64,000 bases of DNA from Methanotrichaceae archaeon (GCA_963748825.1 CAVVKN010000003.1:1-64000), one strand, 5' to 3'. Counted from the first letter of the stretch, positions 47,394 through 61,013 are shown. The notes: a model not told the origin generated them from the letters alone. Translations and numbers: made by a program.

Positions 47394-48938
47394 TCAGGCC
47401 TTCTTGCGATCCCGGATGAACATGCCGGTGCTCGTCTCATCCAGCAACTTCTCGGACGGTTTTTTGGTCATCAGGCTGACTACAATCATGGCAGCCAGCG
47501 ATAGCGCAAATCCGTATATGCTGGGGTGCATGGGCATGGGTGCGATGAATTTGGCGTAATAGCTGAAGGCAAATACACCCACCAGCCCCAAAATCATAGA
47601 GGCGAGAGCGCCCTCGCGTGTCGCCCGCCGCCAGTACAGCCCGGCAAATAGGGGCGTTACAAAGCAGGCCAGCATCACGCCAATGGCCATCCAGATCAGC
47701 CAGGCCAAAAGCTCCGGCGGATTGGACCAGGCCAAATAGAGCGTAATGACCGTGGAAAGCCCAATGGCCACCCGGCTGAGCAGGGTGATCGATTTCTCAG
47801 ACGCATCCTTGTTGATGAACTGCTTGTAGACATCCCAGCCCACGTAGCTGCCAATGGTCAGCATGAGCCGGTCCGTCGTGGACATGACTGCAGATAATAC
47901 TATTATGGCCACAATGGGCGCGAAGATGGCCGGAAAGACATACTCCGCCGCCACAATGAAGCTGTAGTCGGAAGGATTGGCAACACCCGTGGGCAGCGAG
48001 ATCATATTTTCGCTGACCATAGATCGAGCCGCAAAGCCGGTGATCTTGCACAGGTACATGATCACGGCATAAATTACGAAGGCTGCCAGCGGAGCCCACT
48101 TGAAGTACTTGATGTCTCTTGCTGCCAGGACGTTGTTGACGACGTGCGGAGCTGCCGCCAGCCCGAAGGTGAGCAGGAAGAAGAACGATACCAGGTACTC
48201 GGGCGTCATGAAGGCGTACTTGGCATAAGGCGGATGCACTTGCGGATACCAGAGATGCGTCATGTTCACATCTATGCTCGCCAGGACGACGTTGATGTGC
48301 TCCAGTCCCCCCGCCGCAGCAATGACTACCGGCCCCACGAGCAACACTCCTGCCAGTATCATTATTCCCTGCACCAGGGCGGCCATGCCTACGGCGTAAA
48401 GGCCACCAAGGATTGTGTAAGCCATGACTATGACCGCTCCGATCACTAGAGACCACTCATAGGGGATCTTGAAGAGCCATGACAGGACCATGCTGATGGA
48501 GACGTATTGCCCCACCAGGTAGATGATGGAGATGAGGACACCGATTATGGCCGATGTGCCGCGAATACCTCTCGGGCTGTAGAAGCGGTGAGCGAAGTAG
48601 TCCTGCACCGTCACGTAGCCCGTTCTAGAGGCGACAGAGTGCAGCTTGGTTCCGAAGAACAGTATGCAGACCGCAGCCGAGAGCGGCACAAAGATCTGCT
48701 CCCAGATGCTGGGCCAGCCTGCGGCGTAACCGAGACCGGCGACACCCAGGATGGTCATGCCGCTGCAGATGCTGGCTACTACCAGTAGAGTAAAAGTCCA
48801 AAAGCCCAGATTCCTTCCAGCTACCAGGAAATCCGCTGAGTTCTTGATCTTCTTTGAGGCTATGGCTCCGATGGCCATCAGGCCAACGAAATACAGGATT
48901 ATAATAATAGTTCCAATAAAGTCCAAGCCCATCACCAC
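47394..48938 (-). CDS. Sodium:solute symporter (SSS/SLC5, PutP-like)
   Basis: DFLVAGR, YT.LGGL.AV, SAVMST.D, GLYWRRA..GA; about 13 TM segments. Confidence 0.92.
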   Translation of the reverse strand: MVMGLDFIGTIIIILYFVGLMAIGAIASKKIKNSADFLVAGRNLGFWTFTLLVVASICSGMTILGVAGLGYAAGWPSIWEQIFVPLSAAVCILFFGTKLHSVASRTGYVTVQDYFAHRFYSPRGIRGTSAIIGVLISIIYLVGQYVSISMVLSWLFKIPYEWSLVIGAVIVMAYTILGGLYAVGMAALVQGIMILAGVLLVGPVVIAAAGGLEHINVVLASIDVNMTHLWYPQVHPPYAKYAFMTPEYLVSFFFLLTFGLAAAPHVVNNVLAARDIKYFKWAPLAAFVIYAVIMYLCKITGFAARSMVSENMISLPTGVANPSDYSFIVAAEYVFPAIFAPIVAIIVLSAVMSTTDRLMLTIGSYVGWDVYKQFINKDASEKSITLLSRVAIGLSTVITLYLAWSNPPELLAWLIWMAIGVMLACFVTPLFAGLYWRRATREGALASMILGLVGVFAFSYYAKFIAPMPMHPSIYGFALSLAAMIVVSLMTKKPSEKLLDETSTGMFIRDRKKA

Positions 48939-55628: not shown

Positions 55629-56942
55629 GAAGGGCGGAGCGGGAAGTCCCCATCCTTCAGGGTGGGGATGAAAGCGGAGTCATTTGTCATGATTACTTTC
55701 ACGCCGCCCTCAACTGATATAAATATTAGGTATGCATATCTGTATTCGTATGATGATCAGCTACAAGTATCCCATATTCCCGAGCAATATCACTCAATGG
55801 AAGTTAGCAGAGAATTTGGATGCTTGCAGGTGGCTCTATAATCGGCTTCTCGAAGACCTGAATGATGCTAAAGAGAAAGGCATCAAGCTCAAGACCTATG
55901 ATACTCAGAACATGATTCCAACTCTTAAGCTTGAGAATCCGAAGCTGAATCTGGTCTATTCCAAAGTTCTTCAGATGGTGAATTATACTCTTTGGTCTAA
56001 TTTCAAGGGACTTGCAGCGTCCAAGAAGAATGGTCGAAAGATCGGTCATGTCCGTTTCAAAGGATATGGCTGGTACAACACTATGAATTACAATCAGTCC
56101 GGCTTCAAGATCGATCAAGATCATAGCCTGCTGCATCTCTCTAAGATTGGAGAAATGCGGATCAAGATCTATCGAAAGATCGAAGGTTGCATCAAAGCCG
56201 TCATAATCAAGAGAGAAGGCGAGAGATGGTTCGCCATAGTCCAGGCCGATCAGGGACCACAGCCGTTACCGGAAACTGGAGAAGCAGTTGGTATTGATGT
56301 CGGTTTGACTTCCTTCGTGGTTGACTCTGAAGGCAATGATATAGAAAATCCAAGATGTGCAGAACAATCCGAAGATAAGCTTGCTGGACTGCAAAGAAGG
56401 CTAGCCAGGGCGGTGAGGGGATCGAATAATTATGGGGCGATCAAGGATAAGATTGCAAAGCTGCATAAGAGAATCAACTGCCAACGAGATGATTTCCTGC
56501 ATAAGCTCTCTCGGATGTATGTCAATAACTTCGATATCATTTGCGTTGAGGATCTGGATGTCAAAGGTCTGAAAGAGAACGGCCATAATAACGGTATGCA
56601 TCGCAGCATTCATGATGCATCCTGGTCAAAGTTTATATTCATGCTTTCGTACAAGGCTCAAAGTGCTGGTCGGAAGCTGATAAAAATAGATCCCAGGAAC
56701 ACGACTCAAAGGTGTTCTGCTTGTGGTGGCATCGTAAAGAAAGATCTATCGGTACGAGTGCATGAGTGCCATTATTGCGGTTTCTCATGCAATCGAGACT
56801 ACAATGCTTCCAGAAATATACTCATCGCAGGGATGGAACAGCCCGTAGCGCCCATCGAGTCGAAACCTCTAAATCACATATCCGTGATGCAAGTTTTGGC
56901 GATGAAGTGGGAAGCCGCGCCCTTCAGGACGCGGTAGTTCAC
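55629..56942 (+). mobile_element. Non-autonomous IS200/IS605-family element (tnpB only, IS1341-like)
   Basis: TCAC at 55625-55628; left hairpin GGGAAG-tccccatcc-TTCA-gggtgggga; right hairpin GGGAAG-ccgcgccc-TTCA-ggacgcgg ending TAGTTCAC at 56942; no tnpA. Confidence 0.85.
55750..56937 (+). CDS. tnpB: RNA-guided endonuclease TnpB
   Basis: N-terminal HTH (CRWLYN), RuvC-I GIDVG, RuvC-II VEDL, Zn finger CSAC/CHYC, RuvC-III RDYNAS.NI. Confidence 0.95.
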   Translation: MMISYKYPIFPSNITQWKLAENLDACRWLYNRLLEDLNDAKEKGIKLKTYDTQNMIPTLKLENPKLNLVYSKVLQMVNYTLWSNFKGLAASKKNGRKIGHVRFKGYGWYNTMNYNQSGFKIDQDHSLLHLSKIGEMRIKIYRKIEGCIKAVIIKREGERWFAIVQADQGPQPLPETGEAVGIDVGLTSFVVDSEGNDIENPRCAEQSEDKLAGLQRRLARAVRGSNNYGAIKDKIAKLHKRINCQRDDFLHKLSRMYVNNFDIICVEDLDVKGLKENGHNNGMHRSIHDASWSKFIFMLSYKAQSAGRKLIKIDPRNTTQRCSACGGIVKKDLSVRVHECHYCGFSCNRDYNASRNILIAGMEQPVAPIESKPLNHISVMQVLAMKWEAAPFRTR

Positions 56943-56962
56943 AAGCCTTATACCTTGAACTG
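56790..56962 (+). ncRNA. Predicted TnpB omegaRNA/reRNA; scaffold to 56942, guide from 56943
   Basis: Inferred from established TnpB architecture and the right-end hairpin; 5' end is approximate. Confidence 0.55.
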
Positions 56963-59900
56963 CTCCATTTCGCTTCCCAAACGATGCAGCTCTTTTGTGT
57001 CCAGGGAGAGTGGATCGATATGGACCAGCATTATAGCGTTCTTTAGGGCGATCTCATCCCTCTGGGACTGAACAAACCGGAGCACAGTTTCGTAGTTGCT
57101 CTGGGTGATGAGATAACCCATTCCCTCCAGCAATATAATGGGATAGTTGGCCCTGCCCAGGAAATCGGTGATCATACTGGAGAGCCGGGGGAAGTTCGTC
57201 GGGTCCACTGCCCTATATCCCGGCTCGCTCTTTTGCGTCAGCCATATGACCGCATCTGCAGGCACATTATACCTTTCATTAAGGATTTTTGGATTGTAGC
57301 GGCTCAAACACAGTCCATCCATGCCGTGCCTCACCAGCTCGCTGAAGATCTCCAGGCTCTTCTGCGGCTTTTCCTCGGCAATAATGTAGGTAGTCCCTGG
57401 AATGAGTGAGATCTCATAGGGACTTCGTCCATAGCTCTTCATGAGCTCAGCCAGTGTCAGCGTGAGGTCGAAAGCGGGATCGTATGTCTTGATGATCCTG
57501 GCCAGCCTTCTCATCGCCACAAAGAAGCTGCGCCTTGTCAGCACCAGATCCGGGCGAATATCAAGAGACATACTGGACTGCAAAGCGCCTTGCATTTCCG
57601 GCTCGCAGGCGGCAACGGAATCATCTGAGGGCTGCTGCGTCTGCTTGCCAGTCTCGAAGAATTCCCCGGAGGCTATCAGCTCATTGGCCTGCATAACGGT
57701 CTCTCTTCTCACTTCATCGCCGATCCGTGAGAGCATGGCATCGGAGAAGGCCCGGAAGAGATAGGCGGAAAGGGGGCCCAATGAGAAAAGCAGCTCTTTG
57801 ACCTCATTAATGCTCGAGTTCATGCTCGTATGGACGAAATCTGGTTTTTCTGCCAGAATCAAATGCGTCTTATGGCCTAAAAGCTCCATCTGGTAGACAA
57901 AGTCAAGTATCTCCCTTTGCGGGATCTTGCCTTCGTTTTCTTTGACGAGCTGCTCGATGCTGTCTATGAGAACGACGCTGTTCTTGCTGGACTCAACGAA
58001 TGCCTTTATGGTCATAAAAAGGAGTGGCAGATTTCTTGGGGAGATGTAGCGATCGCTTCCCTTCTCATCAGAGAGCTTGATGATGGGCGTCTCTTTAAAG
58101 CCCCAGCGTCGTCTCACCTCTTCAGGGGCAAAATGCGTAATACACAGCCCCTCCACGCCATGGGTGATCTGATCTGTGAAGACCTCATAGGCAATCTCAG
58201 GCACGATATAGGCCTTTCCTCGCACTAAATCATATGCGGGAAGGGTTTCCTTGGCCGCTTCTATCACCGGCTTAACTGTTACCCGATCTTCCACAATCAT
58301 CTTCGTAGCCGAGGATCCCACTGAGCCGGTAAGCGTCTTCTCAAACTGGTCCCATAGGAGCCGAAGCTGTCCTGCTTCAATCTTCTCCCGGCTGGTGCCC
58401 AGTCGCTCAAGGTGAGCATCGACCTGCTTCCTGGCTGGCGTCTCACCGATGTAACGTGCCAGTGTTGCCTCCAGCTCCTCAACTGTTCCCTGACGTATCT
58501 CATGTGTCTCGTGGCCCTGAGCAGTAGCATCTTCATGGTACGCATCCACGAAGCAATTGGCAGACCTCTGCTCATCTAAACTGGGCTTGCTTACCAAAGA
58601 GACGAGGACATAAAGGCTGCAGTTGACCAGTAGTGTCCAGAAGACGGAATTTGTCCACATGTCCAGATCAAGACCAAAGAGATTGGTGGGTATAAGGGCA
58701 GCTATGCCGAAGGGTCCGTCCCGTACAAGATTTCCCAGCCATACATTCCCTTTCGCAATGGTAGGAATGAGGGCCGTGTAGGCCCAGAGTAAAAAGCCCG
58801 ATACCAAGCCTGCCATGGCCCCTTTCCGGTTGCCCTTCTTCCAGTATAGGCCCCCCAGGGCGGCAGGAGCTAATTGACTGGCTGCCAGAAAAGAGACAAC
58901 TCCGATCTCTGCCAGTATCTGGTAAGCAACGGCGCGCGAGTAGAGATATCCTAGGAGCACGACCAGAAGTATGTTCAGCCTTCTGGTATTGAGAAGCGTA
59001 TTGACCAGGTTTTTGTCCGTCTTTATTTTGCTCAAAATATAGGGCATCTCCAGGTCGTTGAGCAGCATGGTGCCCACGGCAACGGATTCAACCAGGATCA
59101 TGGCAGTGGCTGCCGAAGTCCCTCCTATGAACACGAAAAGAGAGAGAGCGTCCTGGCCCTGAGTGTAAGGTATGGTTATTATGAATGCATCCTTTAGACC
59201 GGCAGTATTCAGCAGCACCCCTCCCCAGGCGATGGCGGGGACGAAGATGTTGATCAACAAAAGATAGAGCGGAAAGAGCCACATTGCCTTCCTAAGGTGC
59301 TTTTCATCTGAGTTTTCCACCACCATAACATGAAACTGCCTGGGCAGGAATAAGATGGCAAAGAAGGAGATCAGCGTCAGGGAGAACCAGAGGGTCGGCT
59401 CTACATCCATGAGTGTCTCATATGCCTGATTTTTTGAGGCCAGCTCGATCATCTGGCTCATAATATCTGCATATCCACCAAAGACGCCGTAGGCGACATA
59501 GAGTCCTGCGAAAAGAAAAGCAACTATCTTCAGCAGTGATTCAAAGGCCACGACAGCGATCAAGCCCTCATGCCGCTCCATGGGATCGAGATGGCGAGCC
59601 CCGAATATGACTGCAAAGGCCCCTAAAAGCACGGCTACCACGAGCTTGCTCTCTACGGCAAAGCCCAGAAATATTTGCGAGCCGCTCAGTATCTCAAGAG
59701 ATGTGGATATGGCAATAAGCTGCAGTGCAACATAAGGTGTCACCATGACCAGGCTCAATATCGCCACTACGGCGCCTATGGCGTAGCTTCGACCATAGCG
59801 GAAGCTGATAAAGTCACTTATGGAGGTGAGTCTGTGCTCCTTTGAGACGCAAATCATCTTTCGGATTATGATCCAGCCAACGGTCATGGCTAAGACGGGT

Positions 59901-60124
59901 CCCAGGTAGATGGGCAAGAACTCCAGGCCCGTGGATGCCGCCCTTCCTATTGAGCCATAAAAGGTCCAGGCGGAGACATAGACACATAGTGAGAGGGCAT
60001 AAACATAAGGGTTAGCGACTATGCTTTTTCCCAAAAGCTTTTGGCGGTCGGCATACCGTGCGATGGCAAAGAGCAGCAGCAGGTAAAGGACCATGACGGC
60101 TAACGCGAGATGTGGTCCAATCAA
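56948..60124 (-). CDS. SLC5/SSS-like membrane domain, STAC-like domain and two DUF835-like domains
   Basis: YALSL.VY.SAWTFYGS.G, TSISDFIS.RYG, PY.ALQL, LPRQFH..VVEN; LARYIG...EKTLTGSVGS; two units of G..GLC.....P...IWL...P.N....S...FL...IL(D/E). Confidence 0.88.
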   Translation of the reverse strand: MIGPHLALAVMVLYLLLLFAIARYADRQKLLGKSIVANPYVYALSLCVYVSAWTFYGSIGRAASTGLEFLPIYLGPVLAMTVGWIIIRKMICVSKEHRLTSISDFISFRYGRSYAIGAVVAILSLVMVTPYVALQLIAISTSLEILSGSQIFLGFAVESKLVVAVLLGAFAVIFGARHLDPMERHEGLIAVVAFESLLKIVAFLFAGLYVAYGVFGGYADIMSQMIELASKNQAYETLMDVEPTLWFSLTLISFFAILFLPRQFHVMVVENSDEKHLRKAMWLFPLYLLLINIFVPAIAWGGVLLNTAGLKDAFIITIPYTQGQDALSLFVFIGGTSAATAMILVESVAVGTMLLNDLEMPYILSKIKTDKNLVNTLLNTRRLNILLVVLLGYLYSRAVAYQILAEIGVVSFLAASQLAPAALGGLYWKKGNRKGAMAGLVSGFLLWAYTALIPTIAKGNVWLGNLVRDGPFGIAALIPTNLFGLDLDMWTNSVFWTLLVNCSLYVLVSLVSKPSLDEQRSANCFVDAYHEDATAQGHETHEIRQGTVEELEATLARYIGETPARKQVDAHLERLGTSREKIEAGQLRLLWDQFEKTLTGSVGSSATKMIVEDRVTVKPVIEAAKETLPAYDLVRGKAYIVPEIAYEVFTDQITHGVEGLCITHFAPEEVRRRWGFKETPIIKLSDEKGSDRYISPRNLPLLFMTIKAFVESSKNSVVLIDSIEQLVKENEGKIPQREILDFVYQMELLGHKTHLILAEKPDFVHTSMNSSINEVKELLFSLGPLSAYLFRAFSDAMLSRIGDEVRRETVMQANELIASGEFFETGKQTQQPSDDSVAACEPEMQGALQSSMSLDIRPDLVLTRRSFFVAMRRLARIIKTYDPAFDLTLTLAELMKSYGRSPYEISLIPGTTYIIAEEKPQKSLEIFSELVRHGMDGLCLSRYNPKILNERYNVPADAVIWLTQKSEPGYRAVDPTNFPRLSSMITDFLGRANYPIILLEGMGYLITQSNYETVLRFVQSQRDEIALKNAIMLVHIDPLSLDTKELHRLGSEMEQFKV

Positions 60125-60330
60125 TCAAAATTCCCCCGATCGAAGAGATACAGAGCAAGGATGAAGAATAACCAGATCAGGGTAATATAAACCAGTATGG
60201 CCGGCATACCCATTATAACGTAGCCTTTCGGCAGTTCGATTAAAGGCCAGTTGAGCAGCACCCACCCTGTGGCGAAGAGAAAAACCCAGAATTCCTTCTG
60301 GCCCAGGAGATCCTTCAAGGATAGTGCCAT
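60121..60330 (-). CDS. Small two-TM protein, probable partner of the SLC5-like protein
   Basis: LF..GW.LLNWP.I.....IMG.P....Y...IW...I; 4-bp overlap with the downstream gene; ATG 60330. Confidence 0.78.
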   Translation of the reverse strand: MALSLKDLLGQKEFWVFLFATGWVLLNWPLIELPKGYVIMGMPAILVYITLIWLFFILALYLFDRGNFD

Positions 60331-60332
60331 AT

Positions 60333-61013
60333 TTATAAACCCGGATAAACAACTAACCCCTTGACAGATATATCTACTGCATGCTTTCCCGAATGATGAG
60401 ATGTGCAGCACATCTTGACAATCTCAATGGACCTTCTCCGTGCGAAATTTATCTCTTCATTTTGCAACAGGATTATTCCATCGGCAACTTGCGCTATATG
60501 TGCTGGATAGGGTGCCCCTGGCGGTGCATCTTCTGCCACCAGTGCCACCACTTTTTTAATCTTGATCAAGTGAGATAGCTTGAGAAGAAAACGCCAGTAG
60601 TCGTCTTTGAGGATGTCTTCCAGAACGGATAGGTTTTCAATGACGATTCGAGTCGGCTGGAATGTATCGATCTCCTTCTCCAGCATATCCAAAAATAGGT
60701 CTTTCGATCTGCATGCTTTTTCCGCCATCTCTTCCAGTTCCAGGTAGCAGATCTCCTTGCCCAAATATGTGCTCTTTACAAATTCATAACGGGTGGCATA
60801 ATTGAATTGCAGATCAAGCGGTCCGCCGAAGGTCAGGAGGTATAGCCCGTGCTCGCCCAGATCCGCGCCTTTGCAGAGAAACTGAGTGCAAAAGGTGGTC
60901 TTGCCTGCCCCAGCGTCGCCCGTTAGAAGAATAAGAGACGGTCTGGGAAGACCGCCTTCAATCATGTTATCCAGACCCGGAATTCCTGTAGGCATCCTGT
61001 TTATCATATTCAA
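60333..61013 (-). CDS. Single-domain KaiC/RAD55-like ATPase with degenerate catalytic motifs
   Basis: TGIPGLD.MI.GG, GDAGAGKT, ADGII.L, RR.IEIVKM, I...GL.VYP. Confidence 0.88.
   Translation of the reverse strand: MNMINRMPTGIPGLDNMIEGGLPRPSLILLTGDAGAGKTTFCTQFLCKGADLGEHGLYLLTFGGPLDLQFNYATRYEFVKSTYLGKEICYLELEEMAEKACRSKDLFLDMLEKEIDTFQPTRIVIENLSVLEDILKDDYWRFLLKLSHLIKIKKVVALVAEDAPPGAPYPAHIAQVADGIILLQNEEINFARRRSIEIVKMCCTSHHSGKHAVDISVKGLVVYPGL

Follow-up and report, generated by a model that had tools for sequence, protein, structure and literature searches.

A probable SLC5-STAC-type sensor protein with a tandem DUF835 output encoded in Methanotrichaceae

A 64,000-nucleotide stretch of DNA from a Methanotrichaceae archaeon (hereafter the window, whose coordinates are used throughout; contig C3 of the host genome) carries three minus-strand open reading frames (ORFs) in tandem, identified by ORF calls and by reading of the sequence. 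In this order, they encode a KaiC-like protein, a 69-amino-acid (aa) peptide and a protein of 1058 aa. The large protein, designated here the sensor, joins an SLC5-type membrane domain resembling that of the histidine kinase CbrA to a STAC-like helical segment and to two DUF835 domains. Its description as a transceptor with an inactivated-KaiC output is well supported by this architecture.

Tandem DUF835 domains in place of the kinase core

The Pfam DUF835 profile (PF05763) matches the sensor twice (E 1.2e-50, 171.2 bits against a cut-off of 33.1), with the best stretch at aa 918-1053 and the other at about aa 645-731; in the genome scan the two matches score 127.8 and 52.1 bits. A weak match to Pfam KaiC (aa 695-775) falls inside the first of the two domains. 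HisKA, HATPase_c and PAS were not matched anywhere in the sensor at E values up to 0.1 in Pfam and NCBIfam scans.

An AlphaFold2 model of aa 520-1058 was built with 19 sequences. The model (predicted local distance difference test score, pLDDT, 79; predicted template modelling score, pTM, 0.71) comprises two alpha/beta domains, a confident helical linker and one disordered loop. When the modelled DUF835 tandem was compared with the PDB using Foldseek, the best matches were double-domain KaiC chains (E about 3e-6, probability 1.0). The template modelling scores of these matches were low, at about 0.2, owing to a different relative orientation of the two domains. Pfam, AlphaFold and Foldseek thus agree with the first-pass annotation, made from the DNA alone, in which two DUF835 domains were placed where PAS, HisKA and HATPase would be expected, and point to a KaiC-like fold. 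No GxxxxGK[ST] Walker A loop is present in either DUF835 domain, as read from the sequence of aa 620-1058. A Walker-B-like strand is kept in both, with the sequence VVLIDSIE in domain 1.

Conservation was expressed by region as mean pairwise identity among 20 orthologues. DUF835 domain 2 is the most conserved region of the protein (81.3%, with 69 of 158 columns invariant), compared with 77.7% for the SLC5 part and 33% for the linker that precedes the STAC segment; all folded domains lie at 75-81%.

The disordered loop between the two DUF835 domains (aa 826-850, window about 57575-57650) carries a conserved A-C-(E/D)-P-(E/D)-M motif, which is kept in relatives of 51-56% identity and deleted in P0125. 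The motif may serve for docking or may hold a redox-sensitive cysteine.

A CbrA-type SLC5 domain and a STAC-like segment

The input half of the sensor was compared with solved structures. Residues 10-613 align to residues 13-590 of PDB chain 10ed_A, labelled 'histidine kinase', at E 2.1e-86. The accessible text of the 2026 cryo-electron microscopy preprint on CbrA names Y51, S53, W55, A56, F71, Y75, T115, K196, F248 and F406, and chain 10ed_A has all ten residues, the same letters at the same numbers. Because of this agreement, the chain was taken as CbrA SLC5-STAC. The SLC5 domain of the sensor is ~38% identical to the solved CbrA and contains 13 hydrophobic segments in a hydropathy scan; its match to Pfam SSF is marginal (E 2.7e-5, 23.6 bits against a cut-off of 22.8).

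The window also encodes an ordinary 514-aa sodium:solute-symporter-like protein (47394-48938, minus strand; identification by eye and BLASTP only), at a distance of ~8 kb from the sensor gene. The sensor aligns to this SSF transporter with 29.6 bits, as against E 2e-86 to the SLC5-STAC structure, which upholds the earlier reading of its SLC5 domain as CbrA/CrbS-type rather than that of an ordinary transporter.

In the account given by the preprint, K196 of CbrA is the Na2-site lysine tied to proton coupling. The sensor has K199 at this place, and the residue is almost invariant among 47 family members. Six of the eight preprint-named residues of the histidine pocket are identical (Y49, S51, W53, F69, Y73 and F412), and two differ (A56 of CbrA is T54, and F248 is S253), so that histidine is not implied as the ligand. 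The CbrA SLC5 domain itself transports histidine, as stated in the accessible parts of the preprint and of a 2021 review of the sodium:solute symporter (SSS) family. Characterised SLC5-STAC family members are linked, in the literature that was accessible, to histidine, acetate and pyruvate, and a carboxylate is therefore a reasonable guess for the ligand here. Acetate would be attractive for this host, a guess from the host's lifestyle.

STAC proteins carry an LGPx(x)A motif, according to the accessible text of PMC4834066. The STAC-like segment of the sensor is aligned to residues 518-590 of the CbrA chain within the single match described above, with 'IGETPA' at the place of the motif. The AlphaFold model has three confident helices at aa 548-599 and a fourth stretch of low confidence. 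No Pfam match covers the segment, the STAC profile being absent from the set. Membership in the STAC family is putative and is suggested by position, the contiguous alignment to CbrA and the predicted helices.

A small peptide at the CbrX position

The 69-aa peptide has two hydrophobic helices and was found in 22 of 22 orthologous loci. It has no Pfam or NCBIfam family match, and searches of the PDB, whether from the single sequence or from a profile of 25 sequences, gave chance-level matches only, no CbrX chain being found. A two-helix small ORF also lies just upstream of the sensor gene in 68 of 78 bacterial SLC5-STAC loci, including a Pseudomonas locus (L071). When run against the 19,622 small ORFs of the host genome, a hidden Markov model (HMM) of these 68 bacterial peptides picked out the window peptide at E 4.2e-12, with the second-best match at E 0.18. 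The pattern common to the peptides is (F/L)N(W/Y/F)P(L/I), followed by G.P and then by Y.F..W..I.

According to PMC6591292, translation of CbrX, a hairpin of 58 aa, is coupled to that of cbrA, and in the CbrA preprint the peptide is seen bound to transmembrane helices TM3 and TM8 of CbrA. As judged from the HMM match, the window peptide is a homologue of the bacterial peptides at the CbrX position; it agrees with CbrX itself in position, topology and coupling.

Distribution and origin of the fusion

A full-length sensor orthologue is present in 22 of 24 same-genus genomes (73-88% identity), and the observation is therefore not due to chance. Sixteen other genomes of the class gave partial matches only, either DUF835-only or weak SSF. 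A word-indexed search listed 120 matches, all with at least 71% identity, and every named one among them was from Methanothrix or Methanotrichaceae. In the databases, these orthologues are annotated as 'DUF835 domain-containing' or 'Na+/proline symporter'.

An exhaustive search of 1.84 billion representatives returned 6,199 relatives, the best 150 of which were inspected. These 150 included one other full-length form, from a Methanothrix cluster (78% identity), and one 556-aa fragment whose cluster has a 1035-aa member. The remainder were short same-family pieces or proteins matching about aa 1-615 only, at 37-49% identity; the named relatives that cover the sensor part only came from Desulfuromonadales, Chloroflexota, Geobacterales and Thauera. 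In a species-level genome collection, 2 of 80 kept loci were full-length, both from Methanotrichaceae (56-57% identity), and the other 78 were bacterial and matched the sensor part only. A word-indexed search with the DUF835 part returned 98 matches, only same-family fragments, the 21 longest of them at least 51% identical, and is uninformative on distant tandem-DUF835 proteins. The ESM Atlas yielded generic DUF835 clusters only, all with scores under 0.9. Among the relatives and genomes examined, the full SLC5-STAC-DUF835 fusion was found only in Methanotrichaceae.

Pfam analysis of 46 relatives identified HATPase_c in 31, HisKA in 28, a receiver domain (REC) in 6, SpoIIE, GGDEF and EAL in 2 each, and HD in 1, with DUF835 confined to the 556-aa fragment. 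Every scanned relative with a cytoplasmic domain match carries a signalling output. The diversity of these outputs marks SLC5-STAC as a reusable sensor input, and a kinase-free SLC5-STAC protein is not unique to the present case: close bacterial relatives have SpoIIE phosphatase, GGDEF/EAL or HD outputs.

An unrooted FastTree phylogeny was calculated for 99 SLC5-STAC parts. All 21 rows from Methanotrichaceae fall into a single clade (support 100), nested in a group (support 99) with sequences from Thermodesulfobacteriota and Nitrospirota. Nine proteins of this group were scanned for domains; three are SLC5-STAC-GAF-SpoIIE proteins and six are kinases. The topology suggests that the cassette of peptide and SLC5-STAC was transferred once from anaerobic bacteria and was then fused to archaeal DUF835.

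The KaiC-like neighbour and its link to DUF835

The protein encoded by the first gene of the trio has a single domain that matches Pfam KaiC (PF06745) at E 7.8e-35, and a profile of 33 family sequences finds the two domains of KaiC in the PDB (E 4.5e-68). Its Walker A motif, GDAGAGKT, is intact, with G32, G35, G37, K38 and T40 invariant in the 33 sequences; the family alignment has 39 invariant columns, including the entire P-loop. The sequence 'TFGGP' is aligned with 'vtfEEt' and 'ayEEs' of KaiC, which puts Gly-Gly at the place of Glu-Glu. Most members have TFGGP there, and the two most divergent have 'SEP'. The Glu-Glu of KaiC ('TFEE' and 'YEE') are its catalytic glutamates. We infer that the neighbour binds ATP and has at most slight hydrolytic or kinase activity.

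The presence of this gene was scored at the 22 orthologous loci, one of which ends too early to contain it. At the 21 informative loci it is present in 14, including the two most divergent (56-57% identity).

KaiC-like genes also accompany other DUF835 genes. The host's only other DUF835 gene lies in an operon-like row of genes on one strand encoding CheY-like REC, PAS-kinase, DUF835, PadR and KaiC-like proteins (contig C9, L013:1518-4794). In another family of the class, a KaiC-like gene follows at no more than about 2 kb in 9/9 REC-PAS-PAS-DUF835 loci (L014-L022). Hence a KaiC-like gene stands beside the DUF835 gene in 10/10 other DUF835 loci examined, ten loci that are kin and not independent. 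The host genome as a whole holds eight PF06745 matches, one of them double-domain.

Some further features of these loci were observed. The second DUF835 protein of the host has 220 aa and a Cys-rich N-terminus, and the KaiC-like gene near it has a degenerate P-loop, GAEGTLKS. The KaiC-like P-loop of the four REC-PAS-PAS-DUF835 loci that were printed is GxxGxLKS, and in L016 and L021 a 378-395-aa protein resembling winged helix-turn-helix proteins is encoded between the REC-PAS-PAS-DUF835 gene and the KaiC-like gene.

Proposed mechanism and alternative explanations

On balance, we think it somewhat more likely than not that the sensor is a Methanotrichaceae-specific transceptor with (i) a CbrA-type input, (ii) a STAC relay, (iii) an inactivated-KaiC output that acts by contacts, (iv) partners of the KaiC family, and (v) an origin in a bacterial cassette. 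At the input, the proton-coupled, CbrA-type SLC5 domain together with the membrane-bound CbrX-like peptide would bind, and probably transport, a small solute, with carboxylates and amino acids as the best candidates. A STAC bundle docked beneath the transporter would relay the conformational state of the latter. The two DUF835 domains that replace PAS-HisKA-HATPase would then act by altering contacts with other proteins, since P-loop nucleotide binding is impossible for them. The likeliest partners would be KaiC-family P-loop proteins, among them the adjacent one where present, which may be a nucleotide-dependent switch or adaptor, neither motor nor kinase. Behind this proposal stand the observed domain layout, homologies, geometry of translational coupling, conservation and phyletic pattern.

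A more specific form of this proposal is tentative and, in our estimate, doubtful. In it, the ancestor of the Methanotrichaceae would have captured the bacterial cassette and linked it to archaeal KaiC-type signalling. The state of the transporter, dependent on the solute, would set the assembly of mixed oligomers of the dead-KaiC tandem with live, ATP-binding KaiC-like subunits, controlling the response of this obligate acetate-using methanogen to carbon supply, possibly to acetate. If true, it would give DUF835/iKaiC signalling its first defined input and its first tractable model.

Several points weigh against the transceptor proposal. Searched alone against the PDB, the STAC segment found CbrA weakly, at E 0.32, and did not match the stand-alone STAC structure 5A1Q; 12 rows of the phylogeny carry composition warnings. 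In the accessible literature on CbrA, opinions differ on what the membrane domain contributes to signalling, as an overproduced form without transmembrane domains still signals, and CbrX is described as dispensable for growth on histidine. In favour of the proposal, metatranscriptome contigs from two libraries of two studies cover positions 56901-60722 and 57550-60715 at about 98% identity, running from the sensor gene through the peptide gene into the 3' part of the KaiC gene. They are consistent with transcription of the trio as one unit, although RNA-library contigs may hold DNA carry-over and a contig across genes is no proof of a single transcript. Two further RNA runs (X3 and X8) contained short pieces mostly 90-95% alike, probably from relatives, and were not used.

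The remaining points concern the KaiC-like gene. It is absent at 7 of the 21 informative loci, and no orthologue was found elsewhere in four sensor-bearing genomes (99, 93, 83 and 75% complete). Mapped on the sensor tree, where the gene is ancestrally present, its distribution needs at least six changes. Because of these three findings, the gene is not an obligate partner, and in the many strains that lack it the sensor must work without a KaiC-like neighbour. The first-pass annotation, which had the sensor wired to the adjacent KaiC-type protein, therefore stands in part: operon-like spacing and the 14 occupied loci speak for the link, and the absences and repeated changes speak against it. 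Conservation of the trio is likewise divided, as it holds for the peptide (22/22) but only partly for the KaiC-like gene (14/21). The gene trio is ancestral, yet its KaiC-like member is repeatedly dispensable, and any contact between DUF835 and KaiC is putative.

The patchy distribution lends itself to another explanation, in which the sensor is correctly described, the KaiC-like neighbour is a passenger being lost, and the tandem signals by oligomerising or by way of a transcription factor or other KaiC paralogues. The 99%-complete genome keeps the sensor with no orthologue of the neighbour found, the host has other KaiC-family genes at its disposal, and the neighbour belongs to a subfamily without the catalytic Glu-Glu. 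However, the trio is kept in its two most divergent members, the spacing of 2 base pairs (bp) is operon-like, the invariant columns and P-loop indicate clear constraint where the protein is present, and the DUF835-KaiC neighbourhood recurs in unrelated contexts. We regard this explanation as rather unlikely.

The same low probability is given to a regulated transporter that is no sensor at all, the STAC-DUF835 tail of which would receive a signal, for example from the KaiC-like protein or a metabolite, and would gate uptake. It would account for a transport machinery that looks intact, with the Na2-site lysine and most pocket residues conserved, and it is in line with the transport of histidine by the CbrA SLC5 domain. 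The authors who named STAC proposed a role in the regulation of solute transport, and stand-alone archaeal STAC proteins exist, as stated in the accessible text of PMC4834066. Moreover, the locus has no conserved neighbour that encodes a transcription factor or another evident output; the HTH_45 gene described below is on another contig in the host genome. Against a purely transporting role, SLC5-STAC is tied to a kinase, SpoIIE, GGDEF/EAL or HD in every scanned relative with a cytoplasmic match, and DUF835 likewise terminates REC-PAS-PAS-DUF835 proteins as their output. In addition, the tail extends over 440 aa, and conservation is higher in its last domain than in the transporter part.

Although the kinase core has been lost and an IS200/IS605-type transposase gene lies directly past the stop codon, a nonfunctional, decaying remnant of a bacterial sensor gene acquired by transfer is highly improbable, given that the 1058-aa frame is intact in 18 of 19 full-length same-genus matches (the exception has one in-frame TAG), that the folded domains keep far higher pairwise identity than the 33% of the linker, and that the gene is present in metatranscriptome contigs. 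The TAG-bearing orthologue (G023:C1:993417-996584, locus L112) is from a genome that is 95% complete and could be a pseudogene, a sequencing error or a case of a read-through codon.

Gene junctions and genomic context

The positions of the genes and domains are given in Table 1. The coordinates and the junctions read from the sequence agree with the initial description of three tightly coupled genes with a 2-bp gap and a 4-bp overlap. The stop codon TAA of the KaiC-like gene ends at 60333 and is followed, after 2 bp, by the ATG of the peptide gene at 60330; the TGA of the peptide gene (60123-60121) and the TTG of the sensor gene (60124-60122) overlap as TTGA. The small ORF was called mechanically as 60121..60411, starting with GTG and encoding 96 aa. 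Orthologues begin at the ATG at 60330 instead, and the 96-aa form with its start at 60411 was rejected, as it is not backed by the orthologue starts.

Table 1. Genes and domains of the sensor locus and the adjoining transposase gene (window coordinates)
Feature	Coordinates	Strand	Remarks
KaiC-like P-loop protein	60333..61013	-	226 aa from TTG; 224 aa if the ATG at 61007 (two codons in) is used
Two-helix membrane peptide	60121..60330	-	69 aa, ATG at 60330; stop overlaps the sensor start
Sensor: SLC5-type domain, STAC, DUF835, helical linker, DUF835	56948..60124	-	1058 aa, TTG start
SLC5/LeuT-type membrane domain	58565..60124	-	about aa 1-520; PDB alignment, hydropathy
STAC-like helical segment	58280..58489	-	about aa 546-615; aligned inside the CbrA match, predicted helices
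DUF835 domain 1	57755..58237	-	about aa 630-790; Pfam, genome scan, fold
DUF835 domain 2	56951..57424	-	about aa 901-1058; Pfam stretch 918-1053
IS200/IS605-type OrfB/TnpB gene	55732-56937	+	OrfB_IS605, Cas12f1-like TNB and HTH_OrfB domains; 10 bp past the sensor stop

Upstream of the trio lies a divergent ORF resembling aspartyl-tRNA synthetase, named by eye from its translation. The TnpB gene on the other side is followed by a gene for an 80-aa BofA-like membrane protein. In relatives, the BofA-like gene directly follows the sensor gene, and the TnpB gene is therefore an insertion in this genome. The RNA-library contigs of a 98%-identical strain part from the window at 56942-56943, as would be expected of a strain without the insertion sequence (IS).

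In several relatives, a 95-aa HTH_45 winged-helix protein is encoded convergently to the pair of sensor and BofA-like genes (L002:4971-5258). The host orthologue, 90% identical, is at contig C4:46670-46954, and the synteny downstream of the sensor gene is thus broken here, beside the IS element. This regulator was considered as a conserved output gene and was ruled out, its host orthologue being on another contig. The absence of a response regulator near the sensor gene, also noted at first inspection, extends to the whole contig, as none of the 38 receiver-domain matches found in a genome-wide domain scan is on C3.

Comparison with known systems

The sensor resembles CbrA and the other SLC5-STAC histidine kinases (CrbS/MxtR, RpuS) in its 13-segment SLC5 domain, STAC-like bundle, Na2-site lysine and coupled upstream two-helix peptide. 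Unlike CbrA, CrbS and RpuS, it has no PAS, HisKA, HATPase_c or REC domain and no cognate regulator, carries two DUF835 domains and is found in an archaeal host. Lacking both kinase core and regulator, the sensor is not a member of the SLC5/STAC histidine kinases, though its input probably works like theirs.

The nearest sensor-module group on the tree, the SLC5-STAC-GAF-SpoIIE proteins of Thermodesulfobacteriota (for example the Desulfuromusa and Geobacter loci L036 and L094), is likewise kinase-free. An upstream two-helix peptide is encoded at L036, and none was detected at L094 by the criteria used. The output of these proteins is a PP2C-type phosphatase behind a GAF domain, whereas that of the sensor has no predicted catalytic site.

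With the REC-PAS-PAS-DUF835 proteins (PMC5847659) the sensor shares a C-terminal DUF835 output and a KaiC-like gene close by. Their input is a receiver phosphorylated by a kinase, whereas that of the sensor is a membrane transporter domain, and its DUF835 is doubled. The KaiC-like subfamilies differ as well, in that the neighbours of REC-PAS-PAS-DUF835 genes have the degenerate P-loop and the trio has a canonical one, with Gly-Gly for Glu-Glu.

The KaiC-like neighbour has the RecA-like fold and intact P-loop of KaiC and of single-domain archaeal KaiC-like ATPases such as ArlH, PH0186 and PH0284. In contrast to KaiC, it consists of one domain without the pair of catalytic Glu residues, and the likeness observed here is one of sequence and fold, not of hexamers, autophosphorylation or rhythm. 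The DUF835 tandem, for its part, aligns structurally with the CI-CII tandem of KaiC and, unlike KaiC, has no P-loop.

DUF835 has been described as a response-regulator output in Methanomicrobia and Thermoplasmata, in a study with no experiment on DUF835 (Galperin et al. 2018, PMC5847659). Together with KaiC-like proteins it has been proposed to form hubs of archaeal signalling (Makarova et al. 2017, as reported in a citing paper). The accessible text of the 2021 SSS review discusses kinase fusions only. A literature search on Methanothrix solute symporters or KaiC returned nothing relevant, and Makarova et al. 2017 or Korycinski et al. 2015 may list SSF-DUF835 proteins.

New here are the homology of the peptide to bacterial ORFs at the CbrX position, the grouping of the cassette with sequences of anaerobic bacteria, the restriction of the full fusion to Methanotrichaceae among the sequences examined, the Gly-Gly KaiC-like neighbour and its patchy presence. 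In wetlands, sediments and digesters, Methanothrix is regarded as one of the leading sources of acetate-derived methane. In this lineage, the sensor is a clear example of how a bacterial sensor module can be combined with an archaeal output. It joins a structurally understood input, the CbrA SLC5-STAC-CbrX assembly solved in 2026, to a DUF835 output, and thereby makes the function of a dead KaiC directly testable with a soluble 440-aa fragment and a candidate partner of 226 aa.

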